Shown here in pieces: positions 1-64,000 of a stretch of 64,000 nt of DNA. The DNA comes from Eledone cirrhosa (taxonomy: Eukaryota), in NCBI GenBank assembly GCA_964016885.1, contig CAXHJY010000119.1, positions 5,378 through 69,377 of the forward strand. Reading direction: 5' to 3'. Positions within the stretch are counted from its first letter, which is position 1. Each line of letters starts with the position of its first letter. The notes under the pieces were generated by a model. The model ran no database searches. It had not been told where the DNA came from and saw only the letters and a program-made list of their open reading frames with translations. The translations under genes and the position numbers were made by a program.

Positions 1-4487
<4,487 letters not shown>

Positions 4488-4668
4488 TAGATAAATCTAC
4501 CAAGAGTTTACGGTAGTGTCCAATCCGTATGAAGAACTCAATGTATTCCGGATATCATGGAAAGAAGAGATGTAATGAAAATCCAATTTCGGTGAAAGAT
4601 AAACGGTATACAGAGTCAAGATAAAATAAATAATGAACAAACAATTCCTTATATTAAACAAAAAAAGT

Positions 4669-4821
4669 TCACTATTTAACGATCGTTTCTAGGGCATATA
4701 TGTGCTATAATTGGTATGCATATTTAACAGATCTATGTACAAAATTATACAAAATTATACAAATTATCAAGATTAAATATACATACCTAACTCATATATA
4801 CGCCGTCTTCAGAAATAATGA
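4669..4821 (-). ncRNA. Type I hammerhead ribozyme with very long stem II (left-arm copy)
   Basis: Reverse complement of the 11381-11533 motif. Confidence 0.7.
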
Positions 4822-5591
4822 AGTATATTTATTGATAATAACAACAATTCAAAATATCAGTTCAAAATTGACCAATGAAAACACAAAGGGTTAAAAAGCA
4901 GTTTGGTGTGTGTATATACATGTAAAACCCTACACACATTTTACAATAATGTGTGTATAATATGTATGTGCATACTAAAAAGATGGATGCAAATAAAAAA
5001 TTTCAAGGTTAATATCTCTGTAAGCTTAATGCGCTGATAAGATACGCAATGATACTTATGTAGTCAAGCATATAAATATATTTTTTCTTCATACTCACAC
5101 ATATCAGTATAATCACACATACATGTGCGTATATATATAAATATACACATAACCACGAACACACAAACACACACACACCCCCCACTCACATTTATATATG
5201 TGGATATAAAATCATAAGCAAATAGAAATTAAGTCACTCACATAAACACACTGATACACACATTTCAAGATCAAGATACAGAAATTAGGTGGGAGGGGGG
5301 GGGAGGGGTCAGTATTAGGTTGTCAGACCAGACAGCCTAATATAAATGTATCTATAAATTATGAAAAATAAAAAAATAAAAACAATAAAATATATTACAT
5401 AATATAATGTACATACGCATACAGATATACATACACATACGTACATGTACGCGCACATAGAGATATCTACACATACATAGATACACACATACCTATAGTG
5501 TCCTACACACACATACATTTACACGAACATACACATACACATATAAAAAGATAAAAATACGGACACACACACGCGCAACACATACACACAT

Positions 5592-5640
<49 letters not shown>

Positions 5641-5750
5641 TATACACACACACACATAGACTCATATATATACACATACACATACATATACTTATACATA
5701 AACATATATATCCCACACTCATACCACCATGAAAACACATACAAACATCC

Positions 5751-5789
<39 letters not shown>

Positions 5790-6027
5790 TATGTATACAT
5801 ATAAACATACACACACGTACACATATATGCACATATACATACACATATACACACACACACATACACATATATATATACACACACACATAAAATACAGACA
5901 TGCACATATATATATATATATATATATATATACATTTCATTACCTTTATATATACACATAGTATATATACATACACAACCTCACTTATACACATATACAC
6001 ATAAGTTATATTACAATAATAATAAAG

Positions 6028-6064
<37 letters not shown>

Positions 6065-6203
6065 TATACACACATATACACATATATATACATACACATA
6101 CATATACATACATACATACACATACATACATACACCTAAATATAAACATATATAAATACACACATACGAATAAAGACATATATTCACACATAGACACCTA
6201 TAT

Positions 6204-6246
<43 letters not shown>

Positions 6247-6799
6247 TACCTATATACACACACATACACATACACACACATATACATATATATATATACA
6301 CACATATACACACGCACACACATACAGACACACATACACACTCACACATATATATATATATATATATATATGTGTGTATGTGAGTGTGCGCAAATACACA
6401 CATATATATACACACACACACATATAAACACACACAAACACGTACATATGCATACATGCACACACACACACATATATCACATAGATACGAAGATAAACAT
6501 ATAAATAGAGAGACATACAAATATATACAGAACCCATATACACATACATGCAAACACGCATATACATATATACATATATACACACATATATATTCCTATA
6601 TACAAGCATACACATACGCACACATATATACATATACCTACACATATATATACACCACACATTCACATACACGTACATATATAATACATATATATACATA
6701 CATATACATACATATGTATGTACAATCATATATACACACTCAATCTTACATTCATATTTACATGCTCATATATGTATTTTTATATCTAGAAATAAATAC

Positions 6800-6839
<40 letters not shown>

Positions 6840-8100
6840 ATATAGACACCCATCTACCCATATATTCATACATATACACTTACAAAAACAGATGATAATA
6901 GTATGGGGGAAAGGGGGGGGTTTGGAGAAGGGGATCAAAGTAAATATATGTTTCAAGAAACCTATAATATTTTCCATATCTTAATTCAATGTATGTTCTT
7001 ACATATTTTCAATGCTAGGAAATACGAAATCTATGCATCACAAAATAAAAAAGTATACCATTAATCATATGTCAACTAAATCAAAGATAGTCAACATATT
7101 GATTTCCAAGGTGTAAATTAGTTAGGTTTATAATATTTGAAGCAGAATTATGAAGTCAAACAGTAGTAAATTATTAATTACATTATACCTAAATTAAAGT
7201 TAATAATAGGGAAAAGAAACCCAAATAAAAATAAAATAAAGTATTACATCGGTAGTAGCATATAAATTATATGTAAACTAAGTTAAAAATTATATATTTA
7301 TTTCAATAGTATATGTTAATTAGTATATGTTAATTAGGTATACAATACATAAAGCAGATATTGTATTTCATCAATAGCATAATATAATTATATGCAAATA
7401 AAAATCAAAATTAATACGCATACACATACATATACATACACATACACATACATATACATATACATACACATATATATATATATATATACATATATATACA
7501 CACGTACATACATATATAGTCACATAAATATACATACAGATACACATACAATACACACATATATACATATACATATAGATATACATATCTTTTTCAAAAA
7601 ATTTGCACAGAATATATTAACTAGGTATATATCCAAAAACACCTCCCATTCTATGATTACATGAAATTCTGCAATTCGTCTGTACAAGGATACTAATTTT
7701 AAGCTAATTAAAATTAAAATTAAAGTTTTAGGTTGATTAAAGCTAAAACCAAATAATAAATATATTTCCAAAATGTATATTAATTAGGTCAATAATACTA
7801 AAAATTCTTTCTCCGTCATAGGATACATGATATTATTTTGTTATATTTTATCTGTAAAAGAATTATAATAAAAAAAATTTTATAATAAAAGGTTAAACTA
7901 AATTAAAAAATTATAATAAAAGGTTAAAATAAGTTAAAATTAATCTATAAATTAAATTACTGAATATATATTAGTAATATTTAAAGGTTTTTCAAAATTA
8001 ATGATTACATAATATTTTCTCATCTGTAATAAAATATTAATTAAATTAAATTTATAGGTTAACTAACATTTAAATTAAATTAAATTCTAGAATAATGTTA

Positions 8101-8486
8101 TTAATTAGGTTTATAATATTTAAATGTTTTTTTTAGTTTATGATTACACGATATAATTAATTCTGTCTTTTATTTAATAAGATATCCCTAGACTTCATTA
8201 TTTCAAATAGTTCTTGGGAACATAATCTACATTCCTTTCTATTATTTTGATAAGGGGTGGCTCTTTTGAGCACACTCCAGGTCAAATCATATTTTATATT
8301 TTTATTTTTATAACTATTGATTTTTTCTGCTAGAGATGTTGTATTAGCCAGTGCGGCATTTTTAAAGCTATGTTTGTGGGTATTATACCTTGTCTTAAAA
8401 TTGTTAGAGGTAGCTCCTATATATGAGCAAATAGAATCTTTAGTTTTAACATTACATTTATAGACTATGTTGTTAACAAGACAATT
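8101..8486 (-). pseudogene. PLE GIY-YIG endonuclease C-terminal fragment (frameshift near 8165)
   Basis: Manual translation NCLVNNIVYKCNV..SYIGATSNNFKTRYNTHKHSF..WSVLKRATPY..CRLCSQELFEI..LLNKR/ELIISCNHK; absent from the ORF track. Confidence 0.85.
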
Positions 8487-9362
8487 TTAATTTTAATTAG
8501 CTTAAAATTAGTATCCTTGTACAGACGAATTGCAGAATTTCATGTAATCATAGAATGGGAGGTGTTTTTGGATATATACCTAGTTAATATATTCTGTGCA
8601 AATTTTTTGAAAAAGATATGTATATCTATATGTATATGTATATATGTGTGTATTGTATGTGTATCTGTATGTATATTTATGTGACTATATATGTATGTAC
8701 GTGTGTATATATATGTATATATATATATATATATGTGTATGTATATGTATATGTATGTGTATGTGTATGTATATGTATGTGTATGCGTATTAATTTTGAT
8801 TTTTATTTGCATATAATTATATTATGCTATTGATGAAATACAATATCTGCTTTATGTATTGTATACCTAATTAACATATACTAATTAACATATACTATTG
8901 AAATAAATATATAATTTTTAACTTAGTTTACATATAATTTATATGCTACTACCGATGTAATACTTTATTTTATTTTTATTTGGGTTTCTTTTCCCTATTA
9001 TTAACTTTAATTAGGTATAATGTAATTAATAATTTACTACTGTTTGACTTCATAATTCTGCTTCAAATATTATAAACCTAACTAATTTACACCTTGGAAA
9101 TCAATATGTTGACTATCTTTGATTTAGTTGACATATGATTAATGTATACTTTTTTATTTTGTGATGCATAGATTTCGTATTTCCTAGCATTGAAAATATG
9201 TAAGAACATACATTGAATTAAGATATGGAAAATATTATAGGTTTCTTGAAACATATATTTACTTTGATCCCCTTCTCCAAACCCCCCCCTTTCCCCCATA
9301 CTATTATCATCTGTTTTTGTAAGTGTATATGTATGAATATATGGGTAGATGGGTGTCTATAT

Positions 9363-9399
<37 letters not shown>

Positions 9400-9952
9400 G
9401 TATTTATTTCTAGATATAAAAATACATATATGAGCATGTAAATATGAATGTAAGATTGAGTGTGTATATATGATTGTACATACATATGTATGTATATGTA
9501 TGTATATATATGTATTATATATGTACGTGTATGTGAATGTGTGGTGTATATATATGTGTAGGTATATGTATATATGTGTGCGTATGTGTATGCTTGTATA
9601 TAGGAATATATATGTGTGTATATATGTATATATGTATATGCGTGTTTGCATGTATGTGTATATGGGTTCTGTATATATTTGTATGTCTCTCTATTTATAT
9701 GTTTATCTTCGTATCTATGTGATATATGTGTGTGTGTGTGCATGTATGCATATGTACGTGTTTGTGTGTGTTTATATGTGTGTGTGTGTATATATATGTG
9801 TGTATTTGCGCACACTCACATACACACATATATATATATATATATATATATGTGTGAGTGTGTATGTGTGTCTGTATGTGTGTGCGTGTGTATATGTGTG
9901 TATATATATATATGTATATGTGTGTGTATGTGTATGTGTGTGTATATAGGTA

Positions 9953-9995
<43 letters not shown>

Positions 9996-10134
9996 ATATA
10001 GGTGTCTATGTGTGAATATATGTCTTTATTCGTATGTGTGTATTTATATATGTTTATATTTAGGTGTATGTATGTATGTGTATGTATGTATGTATATGTA
10101 TGTGTATGTATATATATGTGTATATGTGTGTATA

Positions 10135-10171
<37 letters not shown>

Positions 10172-10561
10172 CTTTATTATTATTGTAATATAACTTATGT
10201 GTATATGTGTATAAGTGAGGTTGTGTATGTATATATACTATGTGTATATATAAAGGTAATGAAATGTATATATATATATATATATATATATATGTGCATG
10301 TCTGTATTTTATGTGTGTGTGTATATATATATGTGTATGTGTGTGTGTGTATATGTGTATGTATATGTGCATATATGTGTACGTGTGTGTATGTTTATAT
10401 GTATACATATATATGTATATATATATATATATATATATAGTATATATATCTGGATGTTTGTATGTGTTTTCATGGTGGTATGAGTGTGGGATATATATGT
10501 TTATGTATAAGTATATGTATGTGTATGTGTATATATATGAGTCTATGTGTGTGTGTGTATA

Positions 10562-10612
<51 letters not shown>

Positions 10613-11380
10613 ATGTGTGTATGTGTTGCGCGTGTGTGTGTCCGTATTTTTATCTTTTTATATGTGTATGTGTATGTTCGTGTAAATGTATGTGTGTGTA
10701 GGACACTATAGGTATGTGTGTATCTATGTATGTGTAGATATCTCTATGTGCGCGTACATGTACGTATGTGTATGTATATCTGTATGCGTATGTACATTAT
10801 ATTATGTAATATATTTTATTGTTTTTATTTTTTATTTTTCATAATTTATAGATACATTTATATTAGGCTGTCTGTCTGACAACCTAATACTGACCCCTCC
10901 CCCCCCCTCCCACCTAATTTCTGTATCTTGATCTTGAAATGTGTGTATCAGTGTGTTTATGTGAGTGACTTAATTTCTATTTGCTTATGATTTTATATCC
11001 ACATATATAAATGTGAGTGGGGGGTGTGTGTGTGTTTGTGTGTTCGTGGTTATGTGTATATTTATATATATACGCACATGTATGTGTGATTATACTGATA
11101 TGTGTGAGTATGAAGAAAAAATATATTTATATGCTTGACTACATAAGTATCATTGCGTATCTTATCAGCGCATTAAGCTTACAGAGATATTAACCTTGAA
11201 ATTTTTTATTTGCATCCATCTTTTTAGTATGCACATACATATTATACACACATTATTGTAAAATGTGTGTAGGGTTTTACATGTATATACACACACCAAA
11301 CTGCTTTTTAACCCTTTGTGTTTTCATTGGTCAATTTTGAACTGATATTTTGAATTGTTGTTATTATCAATAAATATACT

Positions 11381-11533
11381 TCATTATTTCTGAAGACGGC
11401 GTATATATGAGTTAGGTATGTATATTTAATCTTGATAATTTGTATAATTTTGTATAATTTTGTACATAGATCTGTTAAATATGCATACCAATTATAGCAC
11501 ATATATGCCCTAGAAACGATCGTTAAATAGTGA
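11381..11533 (+). ncRNA. Type I hammerhead ribozyme with very long stem II (right-arm copy)
   Basis: tcattattt-CTGAAGA-[116-nt hairpin]-GAAA-CGATCG-TT-aaatagtga; 9-bp stem I; palindromic stem III ACGATCGT; predicted GUU site at 11524. Confidence 0.72.
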
Positions 11534-11577
11534 ACTTTTTTTGTTTAATATAAGGAATTGTTTGTTCATTATTTATT

Positions 11578-14063
<2,486 letters not shown>

Positions 14064-15160
14064 TCCAAGTTTCTCATCAACCGTGTCCCGCATGTGCAAC
14101 CCCAAAGAACTAGAAAGACACATACAACACTTCATCCACCGTATGCAGTTCTCTGGTTACAATCAGAGAGATAAGATCAGAGTATATAGAGGAGCCAGAA
14201 CCAAATGGGAAAAAATGGTAAATAATGATACAAATGGGACCTGCCCCTCGTACAGGAGCAAATTTTGGAATAGAATAGAAAGAACTAGGAATAAGGTTAA
14301 TAGAATAAACTCATGGTATGATAGTAGAAAGACCAGGTACCTCCATAAAAATACTTATTAGCAATACATACCGTTTTCAAAGACCTCCCTGTATAGACAA
14401 GAAATGTATAAACTGTAAAATAAGCCCCCATATTAACTGTAAAACTAGAAATGTAGTATATAGCATAAGATGTACTGATGGACAATGTAGAGATAAGAAT
14501 ATAGTGTAATATAGGTGAGACAGCTCGTAGTATAGGAGAACGGATAAATGAACACTGGCGAGAGCTTCAAGATAGTAAAGAATCATCTGTACTCTGCCAA
14601 CATGCTAAAATAGAACATAAGGGTAAATTAAAGAACATAGAAATAAAAATCGAATCTACACACAGAAAAGACGCAATGTTTAGACAAATCACAGAGGCAA
14701 TAAACATAAATGAACTCCAACCAAAATTAAATAGAAAGCATGAATGGAATAGCAACATCACAACTTACAAGTAAGGACAAAATGAAAACACACACACACT
14801 TAGAACAAACAACCAACCAGTAACATGTAAATAAACAAATAAATAAACAAATAGAAATACACACATGTAACACATGCGCAAACTAAGCACACAACACACA
14901 CAAAAACAAGATGGCGTAGGACAGAACAAAGGAGAGGCACAAAAACAAAGAAAAGAATCCCCAGTCACTGAAGAGGTCACAGAATGTGTGACGAAAGAAC
15001 TTTGACAATATATGAACAATCGTCTGGTTGTGGAACCAACCAACCAATCGGAAATTTATAAATTCCTAAATTTATAAATTTAATTTATTATAAATTGAAG
15101 TGAAAGCAACTGGTGCGTGTGTTTCTTATTGGCAACATGACCCTCCCAAAGTATAACATA
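14064..15160 (+). mobile_element. 5'-truncated Penelope-like element (RT thumb, Cys linker, GIY-YIG, 3' UTR with HHR)
   Basis: [26 protein letters not shown]; PCIDKKCINC..NCKTRNVVYSIRC; IGETARSIGERINEH; LNRKHEW; contains stops and a deletion. Confidence 0.88.
14964..15006 (+). ncRNA. Minimal type I hammerhead in PLE 3' UTR
   Basis: gtca-CTGAAGA-g-gtcac..gtgac-GAAA-gaac-TT-tgac. Confidence 0.6.
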
Positions 15161-15649: not shown

Positions 15650-18600
15650 GTTTATCAAAGTTCTTTCGTTGCACATCTACAGCATCGTCAGTGGTGCTAT
15701 GTTTCCTTCCGTTGCATTGTATTTTCTACGCCATCTTTATTTAGTCTGTTTATATATTTATTTATTTGTTTATTTTATTTTGTCTTCTTTGCGCATGCGT
15801 TTGCGTGTGTGTATAGTGTTTTGTTTGATGTGTGTTCGTGATTGGATGGCTGTGTATCGGTTAATGTATTCTATCTTTACTAGTGTGTGTTTATATGTGT
15901 TTGTTGTTATTGTGCTTGTGTATGTATTTATTTATTTATTTATTTATTTATACTTCTCTTAGGTCAGTGTTGTTTGTTTGGGTGTTGTTGTTATTCCATT
16001 CATTTTTTCTGTTTAGCCTTGGCCTTCTAAGTTCTATTTCACTGGTCTTTCTGATTTGCCTATCTGCTGGGTCATTTCTATGTTTAGATATTATTCTAAT
16101 TTCTATGTTGTCTATGTTACCGTCGTGTTGTTGTCTGCATGTTCGTATAGTACTGAAACCGTTTTTTCGTCTTTTTAGTTCCCCCCAGTGTTGGTCTATC
16201 CTTTCACCTATGCTACGAGCTCTCTCGCCTATGTATGTTGTTGTCATGTTTCTGCAAGTACCCTCTGTACATCTTATGCTATTGACTACGTTTCTAGTTT
16301 TACAGTTTATCCGGGGTTTACTCTACATATGATACATTTCCTATTAGTACAGTGGGTTTTCTTAAAAGGGTAGGTTTTGCTGATCAGGGATTTTTATGGT
16401 GGTTCCTGGCTTTTCTACCACCTTAATCTTTAAGTGGGTCTTTCTCAGGGCCTTTCTACATTGGTTAGCTAATTTCCCTCCAGGGGTAGCGCCCACAAAC
16501 ATGACACTCTGGTATCTCTGGTTGTCGTACCATGAGGTGTTTTTCCTTATCTTATGTCTAGCCCTATCTAAGCTATTCCATGATTTGCTCCTGTATAAAG
16601 GGCAAATTCCTTTCATGTCCAGTTCTATGAGGGTCTTATACTTCTCCGTGGCTCCTTCGTATACTCTGATTCTGTCTCTTTGGTTGTAGCCAGAGAACTG
16701 CATGCGGTTGATGAAGTGTTGGATGTGTCTTTCCATTTCTGTTGGGTCGCACATGCGGGACACGTTCTTCATCACTCGTTCCAAGTCTGCGATCAGAATA
16801 TTAAACTTAGCACTACTGGACATTGCTGAGTTTTTGAATATCAGGTATTTGGAGGCCATGGGTGAGTGGAGAATTTGGGCTCTCTCATCTATAGTGTTAA
16901 TCCAGAGTTCCGTGTCTAATACAGGTAGTCTATTGTTAGGGTGTTTGGAAGGGTAGTCGAGAGTTACAGTTATACTCTGGTGTATGGAATTAGCTATCTG
17001 CTGGATGCTTTCCATTGTGCTACGTTCTAAATCAAACTTGTTAGTGCTCTCTTGTGGAGATGTTCTTATAACTATATTGATATCGTCTACGTAACGAGAG
17101 TACATGATGAGGTCTATGGAGCTCTTATTAAGGAGATCTTTAAGTCTCCTTTCCCACCATACCATAAAAAGGTTGGCAACGTCACCAGCTATGCTGACGC
17201 CAATGGCTGCTCCTTCATTTTGGGTGTAGATCTTCTCGTTGAACTTGAATATGTGGCCCTTTAGGCTAGTTTTGATACTAGCCCCTATTGCATGTGCGAC
17301 CATTTTTCTTACCTGATCATTGTTTTGGGGTGTCCGTATAGCTTTGGTCCACCCAATCAACCTTCCCATGGGAGTCTTTTTAGCCATTGATGTTATGGTG
17401 GGGTGGGGTCTACCTCTTATGGGTCTACTGGGGCAGAAACGTCTAAGGTTATGGCTGTCTAGGTAGTCAGTGTCGTAGGTAAGTCTAAGTAGGAGGTCCA
17501 GTTCGTCTGTGTCGACGTCGCAGAACTCCACCTCACTCTCAATGATCATCTCCACACATTTTTCCACAGCAAAATCAATGTTATTGGATGGGTACAGTGA
17601 TACTACATCCATGCTGCCTATTATGCAGTTGGATAGGTTCCTGTTTTGTTGCACTCACTGATTCTGCTGAGGAGGTCCTCTGTACTGTCACATACATCTG
17701 AGGACATCTTGATTATGGGGCGTATAACCATTGAGAGGAAGTAGGAGATCCTGTAGTTGTTAGCTATATTTACTCCGGATACGGGTCTTGTTGGTGGTCC
17801 TGTTGTCGGGTCGTCGACTTTCTTGTGGTCTTTGCGGAGTCCATACAAGGGTGGTATGCCATTGTTAGACGCCTGGAAGTTGTTGGCAGTGCGTCTGCTT
17901 GGCTTTAGGATGTCGGTCCACATCATCATGTGAGCGTTGAGGATTTTCTCTCTCCCATCATGTATTTGCTGTGCAATTTCGCTCGTGTTGGTGATGTGGG
18001 GTTGCATAGCCTTGATGTAGTTCGGCATGCTATCTATTGACATCTTACTAGACTTATCCGTGGGTAGACATACTACCTCACCATCCCTTGTGCGCTGCTT
18101 GAGGCTAACCAAGCCTTCTACAGGTTTCCTCCAAGTTGTTGGGCCTCTGGTCGGCTGTCTCTTAGTATACCGGTATACTATTTGTCTAATCTTATTTCTA
18201 GCTATGGTGAACTGTGCCTCTGTCTCGTCATCTATTTGATGTGGTATGCAAACTCTTTTATTAAAGGGTAACCTCGTAGGATAGATATTACCCATCTTAT
18301 ATGTGGGTTGAAGAATAGTTTCTCTAAGGGGTTGTCATTATATTTATCGTCATAGTTGTGTGTGTTGCTATTATTGTTATTATGGTGGTTGTTGTTGTTC
18401 CTATCATTAGCATTATTATTATTGTCATGATTGCTAGATGTATTGTTGCTGTGATTGTTAGATGTATCGTTGTTATGATTGCTACATGTATTGTTGCTGT
18501 GATTGTTGTTTTCTTCACCGTTATTGTTGTTGTTACTGTATTTCTACCGTTGTGGTTGTTACTTTTATTATGTTTCTTGTTTTTGTTGTGTCTATCATTA

Positions 18601-42530: not shown

Positions 42531-44930
42531 TCATCATCATCATCATTTGACGTCCATTTTCCACACTAGCATCGGTAGCAGAGACAGTCCCTTTGTGAGA
42601 GAGCAGGTCAGAGGACTTTGATTTGCATACACAGAATTGATTTTGGCTTGTTTTCTACAGCTGGATGCCCTTCCTAATGCTAACCACATTTAGAGTGTGT
42701 ATACCTACATGACCACTTTAGTGTGTGCTGGTTGGTTGCTTTTTGTCGTGTCACCATCATGACCATTTTACAGTGTGGGCTGGGCGCTTTTTGTTATGAC
42801 ACATACTCAACCACTTTACAGAGTGAACTGGGCACTTTTTGTCATGATATCTACATGACAACTATACAGTGAGGGCAGGGTGTTTTTGTCGTGACACCTA
42901 CACAACCACTTTACAGAGTGGACTGCACGCTTTTGTTGTGACACCTACACAGCCACTTTACAGTGAGGGCTGGGCATTTAATTTTGAGGCTCCAGGGAGT
43001 CAACTTTATGGTGAGGGTGGGTGAGGATTAGGGACTTGGATGGGGTGGAGAAGAAGCCTGAGGAATTGGAGACATAGGTATAGGGGTGGGATGATTACAG
43101 CAAGGGAGATGGTAGGGAAAGGTGTTGCCTACTAAATATATGCCTCAGCTCAAGCATGTTGGAAGGCGTGTCTTCTGTAATACTGAATAGCGCCAGAGAA
43201 CACGGTTCTGTGTCATTGCCTTAGCGAAGTGTAATTGTGCAAGGCCAGCTTTTATTACCTCATCCCAAGTCTTCCTAGGCCTGCCCACTCCAAGGCTACC
43301 ATCAACTATGAGCACTCTGCACTTTTTTATATTACTGTCATCCTTCATATGCATCACATGTCCATACCAATGCAATCTCCTCTCCTGCACACTGCATCTT
43401 ATCTCTCTTATGCCTAATTTCTCTCGCAGTTCATTTATGCTTCGCCGTTCACTTATATTACTATTGCACATCCATTGAAGCATGGAGGCTTCATTCCTTT
43501 CCAATCTTCACAGGTCCTCTGTGCACAGTGCCCATGCCTCACTGTCATGCAACATTGCTGTTCGTTATAGTCATTGTTTCTTCGCTATAGTCATTAATAA
43601 TTCTGACTTTGCTGATTGTTCTTTTATGCATGGCTTGTACTGCCCTCACAAGAAACCCATCTACTCCTAGTTTTCTAAGAACCCACCAGATAATGGAATG
43701 GGAAATCTGTCAAAAGCTTTCTCCAAGTCAACAAAAACCAAGTAGAGTGGTATACTCCTAGCTAGGTACTTCTCCTGCAGTAGTCTTACAAGGAAGTGGG
43801 CATCTGTGGTACTTTTACTTGGCACAAATTCAAACTGCATCTCATCTAGGTTAACTCGTTCCTTAATCAGCTGAGCTATGACTCTTTCAGTGACCGTCAT
43901 AACCTGGTCAACCAACTGAATGTCCCTGTAGTTTTCTCTATTTAGAGCATCGCCTTTGCCCTTGTAGCAGTTGACAATGATGCTGCTACGCCAGTGATTG
44001 GGTATGACACCATTTTGTATAACTTGGTTAACAATGCAGGAGACTATGGTGTGGCTCACCATTCCTGATGCTTTCAGCATCTCAGCTGCCCTGCTTGACT
44101 TCATATCGTTGATTGCCTTACTTACTATTCTACTGCTGACTTATACAGCCGGTCCCTCTGTTGGGTCAACATGTGACAAACTTTCTTCTTCCCATGCATT
44201 CTCCTTTCCATTCTACCTTCTTTTCAGCGTCAGTGAGGGCAAGTTTGCCAAAATCATTTTGTACACACTTCTCCCCACTGACATCACAATTTACCCTGAC
44301 ACATTGTCTTGCGATCCTTAACACGTCATGCTTTTGATCATCATGCTGAAAAACATGCTTAATTTTTTTTGTTTTCTGCTTCCCTTCTTGCAATGTAAAC
44401 TCGACGCCTAGCTTCTCCCCTAGCCTTCTGGTAGGCTTCTCTGCTACCCCCATTTCACCATTCCTTCCAAGCCTGTCTTTTGGCCTTAATTGTATCATCT
44501 ACCTTACTATTCCACCACCAAGTAAGTCACTCTCCGTTTCCCTAGAGACCTACTCCAACCACAGGTTTCATCTGTCACCCTCAGTAGGTTTTCTTTTAGG
44601 AACTCCCACTGCTCCTCTATAATGTATGTCTCTATGTGCTCTTCCTTACTGTCAAAGGCATCAGTGAATATACTTCTGAATTTGTTGTTGTTTGATGGGT
44701 CTTTTAACCGCCATACTCTGGTTGTCTTCTGTTGCCGAGTTCTTCTAGCCCTGATTACAAGGTCGCTAACTTCTAAGTTATGTTGGGAGATGCATTTTTC
44801 ACTAGGGAGGGACTTTGTGTTCCTAATGGTTACTGTCTTACCTTCTGGTAAGAATGAAATCTATTTGGTTAGCATGCACACCTGATCTATAGGTGATTAA
44901 GTGGATGTCTCGTTTTTTGATGTTCGCGTT
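42531..44930 (-). mobile_element. Degraded, internally deleted RTE-clade LINE; 3' UTR with ~44-bp tandem repeats (42690-42980) and (GAT)n tail
   Basis: YKGKGDAL..NYR, QEKY..LYLVFVDLEKAFD, ERNEASMLQWM, RRLHWYGHV, GRPRKTW; APE remnant NQIDFIL. Confidence 0.9.
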
Positions 44931-46279: not shown

Positions 46280-46480
46280 GGAATTCCAGTGCAAAAAAGG
46301 TGCAATTCCATTGATGCCTGCATACTATGATAACTTCAGATTTTAGGTTGACTGCATTATCCTTTAATCTGACTATCTCCATGGATTCTGTCAGACATAG
46401 TCTACATAGTCCTTCACCGGTGGAATATGCAACCACACGTTGTACTACACTCCAGTAGAACTTGTACGCTGTGCCACTAT
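46280..46480 (-). pseudogene. PLE GIY-YIG C-terminal remnant
   Basis: FYWSVVQRVVAYSTGEGLCRLCLTE..VNLKSEVIIVCRH; same motif as 8101-8486. Confidence 0.65.
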
Positions 46481-47076: not shown

Positions 47077-50010
47077 TCATCATCATCATCATCATCATTA
47101 TCATACGTCCGCTTTTCCTTGCTTGCAAGGGTGGGACAGGTCTTATTCAGCACAGCATCTCTCCACTTGTCACGGTCTTTTGTCATCTCCTCCGTGAGCT
47201 TCAGCGATCTGAGGATTTGTCCTCACCACCTCCACCCATGTCTTTCTTGGTCTTCCTCTACTGCGTCTTCCTTCTACTGGGATTTCTTGGCAATTCTTTA
47301 CTCAGTGGTCATCCTCCATGCGCATCACATGCCCATACCATCGCAGTCTTCTCTCCTGCACACTACAACTTATCCCTCTTATACATAGTTTCTCTCTCAA
47401 CTCATCCATGCTTGGTCGTTCATGCACATTAACATTACTCATCCAACGGAGCATGCTTGCTTCATTTCTCTCTGCAGTTACTGCCCATGTCTCACTACCA
47501 TGCAGCATCGCGCATCTCACACATTCATCATATAACCGTCCTTTCGTACGCAGGGAGAAACCCTTCTTTGTCAACAGAGGAAGCAGCCCCCTAAACTTCT
47601 TCCAACCCGTCCTTATTCTAGATACTATGGCCTCGGAACACCCCCCTGTACATCTACTGCATAGGTAGTTTTCCCTACCTGTTAGTTTGCCTGCTATCTC
47701 ACTACATCTCTTGTGTACCCCAGATCTGCATTACGTACATTTTATGGAATTTATTCCAGTTCCTTTCCTACATATCGAACATGGCCATTTCCCTGATGGA
47801 ATCAGAGTATTGTCCTCTCTTCTACTTATCAACACTTTTGTCTTAGCTATGTTCACTCTCAGACCTCTTGATTCCAACTGCTGTTTCCATAGCCAGAATT
47901 TCTTCTCAAGCTCCTCTACTGATTCTGCTATAAGAACCAGATCATCAGCATAGAGAAGTTCCCATGGGCATCCAGTCTTAAACTCCTCTGTTATGGCTTG
48001 GAGGACTATAATGAACAAGAGTGGGCTGAGGACTGAAACCTGATGCACACCTACTTGTATCTGAAAATCCTCATTAAACTCCATGCCTACTCTCACTTTA
48101 CTGACAGCACCCCTGTACATAGCTTGCACTGTCCTCACAAGCCATTCCTCTACACCTAGTTTCCTTAGGGACCACCAGATAACAGATCGGGCTACCCTCT
48201 CAAAGGCCTTCTCTAGGTCAACAAAAGCTAAGTATAGTGGCTTATTCTTCTCTAACAACTTCTCTTGTAGTTGCCTCACTAAGAAGAGGGCATCTGTTGT
48301 ACTTTTCCCAGGCACAAAACCAAACTGCATCTCATCTAATTTGATCCTTTTTCTAATCAGTTGTGCTAATATTCGCTCTGCTACTTTCATAACCTGATCC
48401 ATCAGCTTTCTGCCCCTATAATTGCTCCACTCTAGAACATCCCCATTACCTTTGTAGCAATTTATGAGAATACTGCTGCACCAGTCTTTGAGTATGACAC
48501 CACCATATATAGCTTGATTGATGATGCGTGCAACCAGTTTAGTGCCTACTTCTCCTGATGCCTTCAGCATCTCAGCAACTATCCCCGACGCTCCAGCAGC
48601 CTTACCATTCTTCATTTCCTTAATTGCCTCTTGTACCCTATATTCGTCAATCTCAATAGCTGGTCCCTCTGTTGGGTCTACTGGGGGTAATTTCTCTTTG
48701 TCCCATTTGTTCTCCACATTCATCAGTCTCTCATAGTGACATTTCCAGGGCCTCCTTTTTTTGATCATTCTTCCGGACACACTTATCTCCAACAACATCC
48801 TGATTTGCAATGACACACTGCCTTGCAATGCAGAGCACCGCATGTCTCTGATCTTCCCGTTGCAGAACATTGGCAAACCTACTGTCGGCCTCCCTGCGTG
48901 CTAAGTACACCTGACGTCTAGCTTATCTCTTAGCGGCTGTGTATTTTTCCCTACTCCCACCATTTTTCCAAGCCTTCCATGCCACTCTTTTGTCTCTACT
49001 GGCCCTCTCTACCGTGCTGTTCCACCACCAGGTCACTCTCTGTCTAGTTGGAGCTCTGCCCAAACCACAAGTTTCTTCAGTAGCCTGCAGTAAGTTGTCA
49101 CGGAAGAAATTCCAGTTATCATCTATGTCATACAAATCTAAATCGTCTTCTTTTTCGTCATACACGTCTTGAAGGGCTTTGCTAAATTTATATTTTAATG
49201 AAAGGTCTTTTAGCTTCCAGACCTTTCTTTTCCACACCTTCCTGTATGTCTCATTCTTTCTCATGCTTACTGAGATGTCACTAACGACTAAACTATGCTG
49301 TGGGGTACATTCTTCCCCAGGGTATGCCTTAGTATTTGACACCATCTGTCTGTCTCGCTGTCTAACTAGCAGGAAGTCAATCTGGCTTATGTGCTCGCCC
49401 GATTTGTAGGTTATTAGGTGGTTGGTAGGCTTCTGGAAGTTAGTGTTGCAAATGGTTAGTGCATTTGCATCACAAAATTCAAGAAGCCTGACTCCTTCTT
49501 CATTTCTTGAGCCGTAACCGTGCCCACCATGTACTCCAGTGTATCCATCCTGGAGCTGTCCAACATGTCCATTGAAGTCCCCTGCTAACATAATGATGTC
49601 TCTGTCCTCTGTCATTGAGGCTGTTTGTAAAAGTTGCTCGTAAAAGCAGTCTTTCTCTTCTTTACCCAGGCCTACCTGGGGAGCATAGACAGAGATGATT
49701 GTCAGAAGTCTCTTGCCTACAACTAATCTGAGCTTATTTATTCTATCACTAACTCTAACTACCTCTTTTGTCTTATTGATCCATCTCTCAACCAGTAATA
49801 TGCCCACCCCACCTAACCCATCATCATTACCCGCCCAGAAAAGCTTATAACTACGATGTTTGCCTGCGATTAGTCTTGCAGAGGCACCTCTCAATCTCAC
49901 CTCTTGCACACATCCACATGCCTTCTCTCCAGCATCTCTATCTCACCAGATCTACCTGTTAGAGTGCCAACATTAAGTGTGGCAACTCTGAGATGCGACG
50001 CCTGATTCCT
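47077..50010 (-). mobile_element. Near full-length, frameshifted RTE-clade LINE (APE + RT)
   Basis: ATLNVGTL, QEVR, SVYAPQ, GDFNGHVG, QIDF; FVDLEKAF, GVHQVSVLSP, LYADD; (GAT)n tail. Confidence 0.95.
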
Positions 50011-50645: not shown

Positions 50646-50672
50646 TATATATATATATATATATATATCTGT

Positions 50673-51215
50673 ATAAAATATTAAACAAATAATGAATAAA
50701 CAATTCCTTATATTAAACAAAAAAAGTTCATTATTTAACGATCGTTTCTAGGGTATATATGTGTTATAATTGGTATGCATATTCAACAGATCTATGTACA
50801 AAATTATACAAAATTATACAAATTATCAAGATTAAATATACATACCTAACACATATATACGCCGTCTTCAGAAATTATTTCTGAAGACGGCGTATATATG
50901 TGTTAGGTATGTATATTTAATCTTGATAATTTGTATAATTTTGTATAATTTTGTACATAGATCTGTTGAATATGCATACCAATTATAACACATATATACC
51001 CTAGAAACGATCGTTAAATAATGAACTTTTTTTGTTTAATATAAGGAATTGTTTATTCATTATTTGTTTAATATTTTATCTTGACTCTGTATACCGTTTA
51101 TCTTTCACCGAAAGTGGATTTTCATTACATCTCTTCTTTCCATGATATCCGAAATACATTGAGTTCTTCATACGGATTGGACACTACCGTAAACTCTTGG
51201 TAGATTTATCTACAT
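50673..51215 (+). mobile_element. PLE 3'-end remnant forming a perfect palindrome (203-bp arms, centre 50876) plus ~135-nt tail; long-stem-II HHR at 50874-51022
   Basis: Homologous to 4485-4821; ..gccgtcttcagaaat-t-atttctgaagacggc.. Confidence 0.88.
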
Positions 51216-51254
51216 ATATCTGTATATATATATATATATATATATCTGTGTATA

Positions 51255-52770: not shown

Positions 52771-53993
52771 TGGTAGAACTAGAGAATAAATTCCAAACTT
52801 GGAAGCAGGGACTAGAAAGAAAGGGTCTCAAAGTCAACATGACAAAGACTAAGGTCCTTGTAAGTAGATGAGAAAACAGAACCCAGATCCCCTCAGGGAA
52901 ATGGCCTTGCTCAGTATGTAGGAAAGGTGTAGGTAGGAACTCCATTCTCAGCCCCAAATGCAAACAATGGGTACACAAGAGATGTAGCGGGATCTCAGGA
53001 AGCTTAATTAAGAATGTAGGCTTTACATGCAGCAGCTGTGCTGGGACAGCAGGCAGCAAACAGCCACAGGAAACAAGTACCACCAATCTCTGGGAGGGCT
53101 CTGTAGAAACAGTAGACAGCTTCTGCTACCTAGTGACCGAATTAGCAGCCGAGGTGGGTGTTCAGAAAGTACAATAACTAGGTAAGAACGGGATGGAAGA
53201 AGTTTAGGGAACTACTACCACTGCTAGCTGCAAAAGGCTTCTCCCTTAGAATGAAAGGCAGACTGTATGATGCGTGTATCCGAACAGCAATGTTGCATGG
53301 CAGTGAGACCTGGGCGCTGAAGGTGGAAGACTTAAGTAGATTACAGAGAAACGAAGCCTGCATGCTCCGATGGATGTGTAACTAATATACGTGAACGACA
53401 AAGCATAAATGAATTGAGAGAGAGACTGAGCATAAGAGGAATCAAATGCTGTGTGCAGGAGAGGCAGTTGTGCTGGTATGGACATGTGATGCGTATGAAG
53501 GATGACAGCTGCATAAAAAGGTGCAGGGCACTATAAGTTGGCGGAAACCGCGGAGTTGGGAGACCCAAGATGACCTGGGATGAGGTGATAAAAGCCGACC
53601 TTACCCAATTACACCTCTCGAAGGCAATGAGTCACGACCGTGACTTCTGGCGTCACGCAGTAATACAGAGTACCCAACCTCCCATGGGTACAGGCTGAAG
53701 CATATAGACAATATGCCCCCACACCCCCCACCGCAAGGTGGTCGTGTAGGTGCCACGGCAAAAAAAGCACCCAGCCCACACTGTAAAGTGGACGTGTAGG
53801 CGCCACGAAAAAGCACCCAGCACTCACTGTAAATGAGGTTGGTGTTAGGAAGGGCATCCAGCTGTAGACATCAAGTCAAATCAGTTCCTATATGAGCAAG
53901 GCATGGTCAGCCGACCAGACACTGCCCACAACAGGACAACCCGTCTAACCCATCCTAGCGTGGAAGAACGGACGTAAAACAGTGATGATGATG
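52771..53993 (+). mobile_element. 5'-truncated RTE LINE
   Basis: [41 protein letters not shown]; (GAT)n tail. Confidence 0.92.
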
Positions 53994-54057
53994 TATATGT
54001 ATATATATATATGTATATATGTATATATATGTATATATGTATATATATGTATGTATG

Positions 54058-54088
<31 letters not shown>

Positions 54089-55330
54089 GTGCTAAAACTA
54101 AAGTTCTAGTTTGTAGGAAAGAAAATAAGGCGCCGGTCCCTTCTTGGAAATGGCCATGCTCAGTGTGTAGGAAAGGCGTAGGTAGAAACTCCATTTTATG
54201 TCCCAAATGCAAGGTATGGGTACATAAAAGATGTAGTGGGATCACAGGTAAGCTAACTAAGAACATAGATTTTACATGTGGCCGGTGCTCTGGTGCAACA
54301 AGTAGCAGCATGTGCCCACAAAATACTAGCTCTTTCAATTGCGCAGAGGGGTCTATAGAAATAGTGGACAGCTTCCGTTACCTGGGTGACAAAGTCAGCA
54401 GTGGGGGAGGGTGCTCTGAAAGTACAGTAGCTAGAGTCAGAACTGGATGGAAAAAGTTCAGAGAGCTTATACCACTATTAGCCTCTAAAGAGTTCTCCCT
54501 AAAAATGAAAGGCAGGCTGTATGATGCCCGCATACGAACAGCAATGTTGCATGGCAGTGAGACCTGGGCATTGTGTGCAGAGGATATATGCAGACTAGAG
54601 AGGAACGAAGCTTGCATACTCCGCTGGATGTGTAATAGTAATATACGCGAACGGCAAAGCATAAACGAACTAAGGGAAAGATTAGAAATAAGAGGGATCA
54701 GATGTTGTTTACTCGAGAGAAGGCTACGTTGGTATGGTCACGTAATGCGCATGAAAGACGACAGCTGTATAAAAAAGTGCAGGGCAATAAAGATGGACGG
54801 TAGCTGCGGAGTAGGCAGACCCAGAAAAACCTGGGACGACCTGATAAACTCCGACCTCACACACTTACACCTCTCCAAGACAATGTCACTGGACGGAGAT
54901 CTTTGGCGCCACTCAGTAATAGAGAAGAAACGCCTTACCTAAATACAAAGTAAAACCTACTACAGTCAGTAGGCATCTCTAATAAAATACATCCCCGTCC
55001 CACCACCCCCACCCCATCCACACCGCCCCTTTCAATGTAAAGTTATGTTGGTGCCACAACATCCAGGCCGAAACAAATGAGATCGTGTAGGTTTCATGAC
55101 AAAAAACACACAGTCCACGCTGTAATGTGGCCGTGTAGGCAACACGGTAAAAACCTCTCAGTCCCACACTGTAAATGTGGTTGGTATTAGGAAGGGCATC
55201 AAGCTGTAGAAAACCCGCCAGACAGTCCTATGCGAGCAAGACAACCACTCTAGCCTCAAGTGGGAAAACTCCCGTCCAAACCCATGCAAGCGTGGAACAT
55301 GGACGTTGAACGATGATGATGATGATGATG
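54089..55330 (+). mobile_element. 5'-truncated RTE LINE with PHD-like Cys insert; open frame to 54942
   Basis: KWPCSVC..CPKC..HKRC..CGRC; FRYLG; MLHGSETW; RRLRWYGHV; GRPRKTW. Confidence 0.93.
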
Positions 55331-60318: not shown

Positions 60319-61603
60319 TCATCATCATCATCAACGTTTAACGTCCGTGTTCCACGCTTGCATGGGTTTGGACGGGGGTAGTCCCACTTGAGGCAAGAGT
60401 GATTGTCTTGCTCGCATAGGACTGTCTGGCAGGTTTTCTACAGTTGGATGCCCTTCCTAACACCAACCACATTTACAGTGTGGGTCTGGGAGGTTTTTAC
60501 CGTGTTGCCTACACGGCCACATTACAGCGTGGACTGTGTGTTTTTTTGTCGTGACACCTACACGATCTCATTTGTTTCGGCCTGGATGGCGCGGCACCAA
60601 CATAACTTTACATAGAACGGGGTGGTGTGGATGGGGTGGGGGGTGGTGGTGGTGGGAAGGGGTGTATTTTGTTAGAGATGCCTACTGGCTGGAGTAGGTT
60701 TTACTATATATTTAGGTAAGGCGGGTCTTCTCTGTTACTGAGTACCGCCAAAGGTCTCGGTCCAGTGACATTGTCTTGGAGAGGTGTAATTGTGTGATGT
60801 CGGAGTTTATCAGCTCGTCCCAGGTTTTTCTAGATCTGCCTATTCCGTGACTACCGTCTATCTTTATTGCCCTGCACTTTGTTACACAGCTATCGACTTT
60901 CATGCGCATCACGTGTCCATACCAACGTAGCCTTCTCTCGAGTAAACAACATCTGATCCCTCTTATCTCTAATTTTTTCCTTAGTTCGTTTATGCTTTGC
61001 CGTTCACGTATATTACTGTTACACATCCAGCGGAGCATGCAAGCTTCGTTCCTCTCTAGTCTGCGTATATCCTCTGCACACAATGCCCAGGTCTCACTGC
61101 CATGCAGCATTGCTGTTCGTATGCAGGCATCGTACAACCTGCCTTTCATTTTTAGTGAGAACCCTTTAGCAGCTAATAGTGGTATAAGCTCTCTGAACTT
61201 TTTCCAACCAGTTCTGACTCTAGCTACAGTACTTTCAGAGCACCCTCCCCCACTGCTGATTTTATCGCCCAGGTAACGGAAGCTGTCCACTATTTCTATA
61301 GAACCCTCTGCGCAATTGAAAGAGCTAGTAGTTTGTGGGCACTTGCTGCTACTTATTGCACCAGAGCACCGGCCACATGTAAAATCTATGTTCTTAGTTA
61401 GCTTACCTGTGATCCCACTACATCTTTTATGCACCCATACTTTGCATTTAGGACATAAAATGGAGTTTCTACCTACGCCTTTCCTACACACCGAGCACGA
61501 CCATTTCCCAGAAGGGACCGCCGCCTTGTTTTCTTTCCTACAAACTAGTACTTTGGTCTTAGCCAGGTTAATTTTAAGTAATATTAGCCAGGTTAATTTT
61601 AAG
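60319..61603 (-). mobile_element. 5'-truncated RTE LINE, same subfamily as 54089-55330, inverted
   Basis: ORF 60712-61491 is nearly identical in protein; 5' junction has a tandem duplication ttagccaggttaattttaagta. Confidence 0.93.

Positions 61604-64000
<2,397 letters not shown>

Follow-up and report, generated by a model that had tools for sequence, protein, structure and literature searches.

The window analysed here, a stretch of 64,000 nt from Eledone cirrhosa (GenBank assembly GCA_964016885.1, contig CAXHJY010000119.1, positions 5,378 to 69,377 of the forward strand), carries at 50673–51216 a palindromic unit which, by sequence comparison, represents one insertion, with its target duplication, made up of two head-to-head ends of a Penelope-like element (PLE), a retrotransposon of the Hydra clade. 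An earlier note on this DNA had described a perfect 407-bp palindrome (50673–51079) with 203-bp arms around a single T at 50876, and recomputation found the 203-nt arms to be exact. The right arm extends for 137 nt past the palindrome (51080–51216), where the note had put about 135 nt, and ends ..GATTTATCTACATA before running into (TA)n, the last 2–3 nt of this tail being common to the target duplication. The duplication itself, the 12-bp direct repeat ATATATCTGTAT, flanks the unit at 50663–50674 and 51214–51225. Element positions are numbered from the A at window position 50874 (+1), which places the short end at +206 and the long end at +343. In this numbering, the right arm begins at 50874 (+1) and the left arm at 50875 (its +4) with a 2-nt AT overlap, and the central T at 50876 is the joint of the two arms (locus L001), not a hairpin loop. 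As the note had proposed, the unit consists of the end of a pseudo-long terminal repeat (pLTR) plus a tail, and it comprises the following features:

50663..50674, + strand: left copy of the 12-bp target-site duplication, ATATATCTGTAT; its last 2 nt overlap the arm end
50673..50875, - strand: short arm, covering pLTR positions +4 to +206 (the short end, ..ATTTTAT), from sequence comparison and joint analysis
50730..50875, - strand: hammerhead motif in the short arm, in which the joint leaves 4 nt of the 5′ strand of stem I, from the mirror of the right arm and the fold of a homologous copy
50874..50875, no strand: head-to-head joint with 2-nt AT microhomology, from joint alignment; 50874 is +1, the probable RNA 5′ end
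50874..51216, + strand: long arm, pLTR from +1 to +343, ending ..GATTTATCTACATA, from sequence comparison
50874..51022, + strand: type I hammerhead motif, with stem I at 50874–50880/51016–51022, core CTGAAGA at 50881–50887 and GAAA at 51004–51007
51080..51216, + strand: 137-nt tail, equal to the start of the next unit's body, since tandem copies run on to the start of the open reading frame (ORF) about 150 nt later
51214..51225, + strand: right copy of the 12-bp target-site duplication, from the sequence

The family to which the unit belongs is young and abundant, with thousands of copies in (TA)n and an intact ORF. A similarity search of the species' own genome (3.0 Gb) returned 1497 candidates, and exact-pattern searches matched a subfamily 34-mer 1675 times, the hammerhead 3′ core 7865 times and the long end 7113 times, as opposed to 0, 0 and 1 matches for the respective reversed-pattern controls. 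Partial tandems forming pLTRs are present in the family, together with tandem and inverted arrays. The tandem unit measures 6613 bp and consists of the pLTR, about 150 nt, an 813-aa ORF and a 3.7-kb microsatellite-rich 3′ untranslated region (UTR); the ORF, taken from tandem copies, has an identical start and end in four of five stitched regions and a frameshift in the fifth. Its product combines a reverse transcriptase (RT) with a C-terminal GIY-YIG domain (YRDD and IVY..YIG motifs) and contains the motifs RVRWR, SDKTG, CNCRNKTNC, CRLC and CNH, which fit the Hydra clade, as diagnosed in the published description by RWK-type, DKT, CxCX5C, CxxC and CxH motifs and the absence of CCHH (PMC8557442). 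RVRWR represents the RWR form of the RWK motif, as it does in several of the top relatives, CCHH is lacking and a single Cys lies between IVY and YIG. Relatives of the protein number 511 at E ≤ 1e-30. As comparison of the ORF with Pfam gave 0 families and with PDB 0 matches, the assignment to endonuclease-containing (EN+) PLEs rests on these motifs and on a likeness to published Hydra alignments that was judged by eye.

Two other classes were considered for the unit and rejected. A non-LTR retrozyme, defined in a preprint as tandem non-coding hammerhead monomers without an ORF (bioRxiv 10.64898/2026.07.22.740005), is at odds with a unit that is the end of an ORF-bearing element. A miniature inverted-repeat transposable element or foldback DNA transposon would be expected to show one fixed palindrome with symmetric terminal inverted repeats, whereas here the ends are asymmetric and the centre varies by locus.

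The 343-nt end sequence of the unit recurs (95.6–96% identical) at 4484–4819, where it forms the left end of a 7-kb inverted structure at 4485–11581; the right end of this structure (11383–11583) corresponds to the first ~200 nt of the same sequence. The structure has ~3.07 kb of shared arms around a 761-nt central spacer, which belongs to the long, tailed arm, and the reuse of the same two 3′ end points at both loci that the note had pointed out is borne out, with the long end at 4484–4486 and the short end at 11581. Its features are:

4485..8483, - strand: long arm, with the end of the GIY-YIG-coding ORF, the microsatellite-rich 3′ UTR, the pLTR and the tail, from sequence comparison
8104..8468, - strand: ORF remnant in the central spacer, residues 692–813 of the 813-aa protein (tblastn, 98% over 692–793, frameshifted near the end)
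8484..11581, + strand: short arm, ending ..ATTTTAT, from sequence comparison

The two end points are fixed across the copies sampled. Ends were recorded in a sample chosen regardless of ends, namely the first 100 listed of the 1675 matches to the 34-mer, consecutive on contig C1. Here, 44 copies end at +343, 45 at +206 and two at +201/+202, and the remaining nine read through as internal units of tandems. With 89 of 100 copies terminating at exactly one of two positions, the ends are non-random, as the note had expected. All 91 terminal ends enter TA repeats, matching the (TA)n insertion of the Hydra clade, and two diverged copies (76% and 84% identical) retain the same two ends. A head-to-head joint pattern, in which two hammerhead 5′ ends lie within 30 nt of each other, occurs at 395 places genome-wide (reversed pattern: 0), and all 395 share the same position in hammerhead stem I. 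Among the 49 mini-palindromes examined (48 of the 50 listed joints, one of them L042, and that of the window), 47 combine a long end with a short one, and a one-sided tail is likewise found in 47, its length of 137 nt standing against the 30–40 nt stated for EN+ PLEs. An exact informative target duplication was obtained at 6 of 52 loci, with lengths of 12, 12, 14, 14, 14 and 15 bp when ambiguous TA bases are counted. Exceptions to the pairing were also seen, in the form of an inverted pair with two short ends and of arrays with two same-direction long ends (G000:C1:166451500 block; C1:217446300 block). At another locus (L174), the flanks form an inverted, not a direct, repeat of ~20 nt.

The 5′ ends of the arms are concentrated at a single base. 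In a set of 100 unselected arms, the start lies at -5..+9 in 25, at +10..+135 in 16 and at -99..-6 in two, while 57 reach at least 100 nt upstream; in the mini-palindromes, 51 of 98 arms begin exactly at +1 and seven extend upstream. A cut by the hammerhead was rejected as the origin of these 5′ ends, none of the 100 arms beginning at +136..+150. In read-through copies, +1 lies within TCATT, a context which we take to be initiator (Inr)-like. An extra G stands before +1, where the template has C, in 194 copies; in a comparison one base downstream of +1, G was found in 8 of the first 100 of 162 copies. The extra G is not templated by the partner arm in 18 of 30 inspected cases and is present on both arms at 18 loci, with a spacing of 0–12 nt (no base between the two at three loci and one base at six). 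In the published analysis of L1, an extra 5′ G is the mark of cap copying (PMC11702581). Position +1 is thus likely to be the 5′ end of the RNA, and likely capped. A 2-nt overlap like that of the window is found at 20 of 49 joints, and perfect zero-loop joints are common among the joints listed. Some joints contain short reiterated copies of the RNA 5′ end (GAAATAAT three times in L005:1461–1500, and a similar arrangement at the L161 joint), which resemble repeated template jumps of the RT.

The hammerhead motif at 50874–51022 has a stem II region of ~115 nt, a 3-bp stem III and a predicted cut after GTT at 51015. Its layout agrees with the Hydra table in the supplement of PMC8557442, except that, owing to the long stem II, it spans ~150 nt as compared with the 80–100 nt tabulated for Hydra. 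A scan of the window against Rfam at the gathering score gave 0 matches, and the call rests on motifs and folding: the homologous copy in the 7-kb structure folds into a hammerhead (z -4.7), and the GAAAC and GTT segments are retained in 104 of 104 arms (CTGAAGA itself was a selection criterion). In the predicted fold of the full pLTR, stem I has a probability of ~0 and a competing hairpin one of 0.3–0.4, which fits a template that would remain uncut. The 3′ strand of stem I (51016–51025) can pair with 51056–51065, a downstream repeat of its 5′ strand, and the resulting hairpin, which finishes shortly before the short end, is predicted to beat the ribozyme fold; it may act as a switch that protects the template from being cut. 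Folding gave no support for a distinctive RNA structure at the tail (z -0.58).

Evidence from other assemblies and raw data was drawn from three raw Illumina restriction-site associated DNA (RAD) runs with a related organism label, whose reads are mostly 90–99% alike to the element, and from contigs. The long end running into (TA)n is present in all three runs (622, 533 and 714 reads). Reads that switch strand at +1 number four (three starts) in X18, one in X19 and none in X17, and one X1 contig also shows the switch. Among the sequencing runs listed as containing the element, none is an RNA run, which speaks neither for nor against its expression. Contigs of two further organisms, X4 and X7, contain the inverted arm at +1. 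Contigs of X5 show both ends entering (TA)n, and X6, represented by three contigs in all, shows the short end with a non-TA flank and no joint. The short end is absent among the loose ends listed for the RAD runs. Given the degree of likeness, what these reads corroborate is that joints of this type exist in other individuals or species, not the joint at this locus; the raw-read evidence that the earlier note asked for therefore supports the type of joint. Read pile-ups at 5551, 5705 and 5774 were rejected as element ends, being AATT sites with mixed loose ends that were read as cut sites of the library.

The most probable origin of the palindrome, to which a probability of about 0.7 is assigned, is twin target-primed reverse transcription that begins at two fixed sites on the RNA, separated by 137 nt. 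Both strands of (TA)n would be nicked, 12–15 bp apart, by the GIY-YIG domain, which probably acts as a dimer, and each of the two target 3′ ends would then prime a cDNA internally on an RNA not cut by the hammerhead, one at +343 and the other at +206. Where the pLTR used is the first one of the transcript, at its 5′ end, both RTs would run off at +1, often adding a C opposite the cap, and the two cDNA 3′ ends would be joined via 1–2 nt of microhomology or a few added bases, followed by fill-in. Priming on the downstream pLTR of a read-through RNA would instead yield longer arms, each with a stopping point of its own, of the kind seen in the 7-kb structure. The biochemical steps have a precedent in an anole PLE; the cap, the start site and the connection with inverted copies are inferred by us.

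Whether one or two cDNAs were made is the point at which this proposal parts from the published reading of head-to-head PLE palindromes, in which the 3′ end of a single cDNA, here one primed at +343, turns back and primes the copying of that same cDNA, the copy being cut or joined at +206. In the EN+ PLE papers, palindromes are attributed to self-priming and the tail to endonuclease resolution (PMC3846280; PMC2377424; PMC8557442), the self-priming being described on an antisense template (PMC3846280), and snap-back joints have been documented for R2-mediated insertions (PMC11371274). Such folding would account for identical arms and for loci at which the tailed arm owns the central spacer. Among 31 two-armed loci, this is the case at eight, including the 7-kb structure of the window; at another eight, however, the spacer belongs to the short arm, which there extends further 5′ than the tailed arm. 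Similarly, the 14 copies whose fetched flank shows no partner arm divide into seven long-ended and seven short-ended ones (one of the latter with an inverted long-end remnant upstream), which implies that both sites work alone. Short-arm spacers, lone short ends and zero-loop joints with both arms at +1 and a G on each cannot arise directly from the folding of a tailed cDNA, and two cDNAs are therefore favoured, with the fold-back left as an unlikely alternative. The earlier note was right in placing the fold point in the 5′ strand of stem I (ATTATTT, 50874–50880), whereas the "folding back" it described is probably not the mechanism.

The remaining alternatives fare less well. In a two-step origin, the ATT at +1 would be an endonuclease site in the element's own pLTR, into which a second copy inserts or with which it recombines, followed by a central deletion. 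Tandem and nested arrays do exist, and the protein of the anole element is reported to prefer 5′-ATT-3′ near the junction of ORF and pLTR (PMC11167929), matching the first bases from +1. The arms, however, are identical within a locus at 39 of 52 loci and differ by a mean of 0.35 within as opposed to 5.9 between loci, with just 10% of between-locus pairs differing by ≤1, and 13 of the 39 identical-arm loci have a haplotype found at no other locus among the 52. Both arms of a locus thus come from one source, as would be the case if one RNA were copied twice or if two RNAs came from the same locus. Furthermore, one target duplication encloses the whole unit, independent events would yield about half like-ended pairs in place of the long–short pairing at 47 of 49, and cutting leaves the extra G unexplained, so that this origin appears improbable. 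An assembly or library artefact from fold-back chimeric long reads might be suspected where three large near-perfect palindromes lie within one 64-kb window and where strand-switch reads are few (five in three raw runs of a related organism label). Yet the 12-bp flanking duplication at this locus is direct rather than inverted, the arms differ at 13 of 52 loci, the joints vary by locus, and raw Illumina reads contain both the passage of the long end into TA repeats and the change of strand at +1. An artefact, against which the note had already argued, is largely refuted and has very little probability left.

Several points nevertheless weigh against twin priming. Both arms copy the same +1..+206, for which either a single RNA with strand displacement or two RNAs of common source would be needed, and the identity of the arms would be equally expected from a fold-back or from gene conversion between the arms. 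Deletions arising later across the unstable centre of a palindrome could also leave a spacer on either arm, and the loci of that comparison other than the sixteen with an assigned spacer comprise 11 with no spacer of at least 18 nt, two that are unassignable, one without a paired anchor and one excluded locus (C1:113214200), whose near-symmetric 6.1-kb arms were misclassed by the script and which was removed by hand. The extra G could be a plain terminal addition at any RNA end. The mini-palindromes were selected by a pattern that confines the starts to ~30 nt, two of the 49 do not align to both ends, and exact informative target duplications are restricted to so few loci because the target is pure (TA)n.

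The window contains further elements of related and other types. A second family occupies 23356–28787 with a 5.4-kb palindrome of 422-bp tandem units in (TA)n, each with a hammerhead motif (six per strand); its right end is ~59 nt longer than its left, giving a retrozyme-like array with the same long/short asymmetry. Broken frames at 16362–18334 (- strand) and 13990–14361 resemble, by eye, the RT of another PLE family and gave no tblastn match to the Hydra protein, and 46296–46454 (- strand) matches the C-terminal end of the Hydra endonuclease at 41% identity and represents a further diverged PLE remnant. Fragments at 47731–49942, 53992–54942, 60712–61782 and 43667–44140 resemble the endonuclease and RT of RTE-type long interspersed nuclear elements, and inverted copies with 93% identity lie at 54091–54991 and 60663–61563. 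The ORF at 29654–30232 (- strand) resembles the N-terminal half of a Tc1/mariner transposase.

The general architecture of the insertion is already known, since EN+ PLE insertions are typically described as an inverted pLTR with a tail on one side (PMC3846280; PMC2377424; PMC8557442). As described in these papers, the copies here combine a head-to-head inverted, 5′-truncated partner, a tail at one end, a target duplication, a joint palindrome and an Inr-like sequence in the pLTR. The element further agrees with the C-terminal EN+ PLEs of the Hydra clade as characterised by Craig et al. (2021; PMC8557442) in its RT followed by a C-terminal GIY-YIG domain, its clade motifs without CCHH, the canonical hammerhead in the pLTR and the (TA)n target; for one member, Penelope-13_HM, a 5′-truncated inverted copy was noted. 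It departs from them in its 6.6-kb unit, which exceeds the general size of <3 kb by virtue of its 3.7-kb microsatellite-rich 3′ UTR (size being a stated tendency of the clade and not diagnostic), and in its 137-nt tail. With published tails of 31, 34–37 and 30–40 nt (PMC3846280; PMC2377424; PMC8557442), the tail is about four times longer than the EN+ PLE tails given there, and the note's remark that it exceeds the known few tens of nucleotides is upheld. Unlike in the self-priming interpretation of those papers, the joints here favour two cDNAs. No report of a PLE tail this long, or of twin priming by PLEs, was found in the openly searchable literature, most subscription papers being outside the search, and a word search of the supplements of PMC11167929 (text, not figures) returned nothing on either. 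In the portions of the cited papers available, no counterpart was found for the 137-nt tail, the pile-up of arms at one 5′ base, the extra G or the ownership of the spacer by either arm.

The closest biochemical parallel is Poseidon of Anolis carolinensis, whose protein, a predicted dimer, cuts and extends both strands in vitro; reverse transcription starts at two internal sites bounding the tail, and uncut hammerhead RNA serves as template (Frangieh et al., 2024; PMC11167929). The present element likewise has an AT-rich target, and its two start sites would bound the tail. In the anole element, however, the two sites adjoin each other within the ORF, whereas here 137 nt separate them and both precede the ORF. 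The available portions of the Poseidon paper neither link the two sites to inverted copies nor describe run-off at the RNA 5′ end (PMC11167929). A second parallel is twin priming by L1, in which the second target strand primes a second cDNA, the inversion joint shows microhomology, the target duplication is kept and full-length 5′ ends bear an extra G (PMC11702581). The arms of L1, however, are adjacent and cover nearly non-overlapping parts of the RNA, the second start being set by microhomology, according to the same source; in the present element the two starts have fixed positions and the arms overlap, which yields a palindrome.

The origin of the inverted copies and tails of PLEs has been described as unresolved (PMC8557442; PMC3846280; PMC11167929). 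It is tentatively suggested, at somewhat less than even odds, that PLEs normally integrate by symmetric twin priming, in which a dimer would copy one capped, uncut RNA twice from one programmed start site per target strand and the joining of the cDNAs would replace second-strand synthesis. Mini-palindromes would then be strong-stop products, with the transcription start recorded in each of their arms, and the spacing of the start sites (137 nt) would be a family-specific RNA ruler. Because the start sites lie 137 nt apart, they can be distinguished in every insertion and in any assay, and the genome thereby provides hundreds of natural products by which twin priming and self-priming can be told apart, and it predicts where transcription starts to a single base. 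If this reading is true, a telomerase-related RT would routinely write cDNA onto both ends of one break and thereby seed thousands of palindromes in an animal genome.
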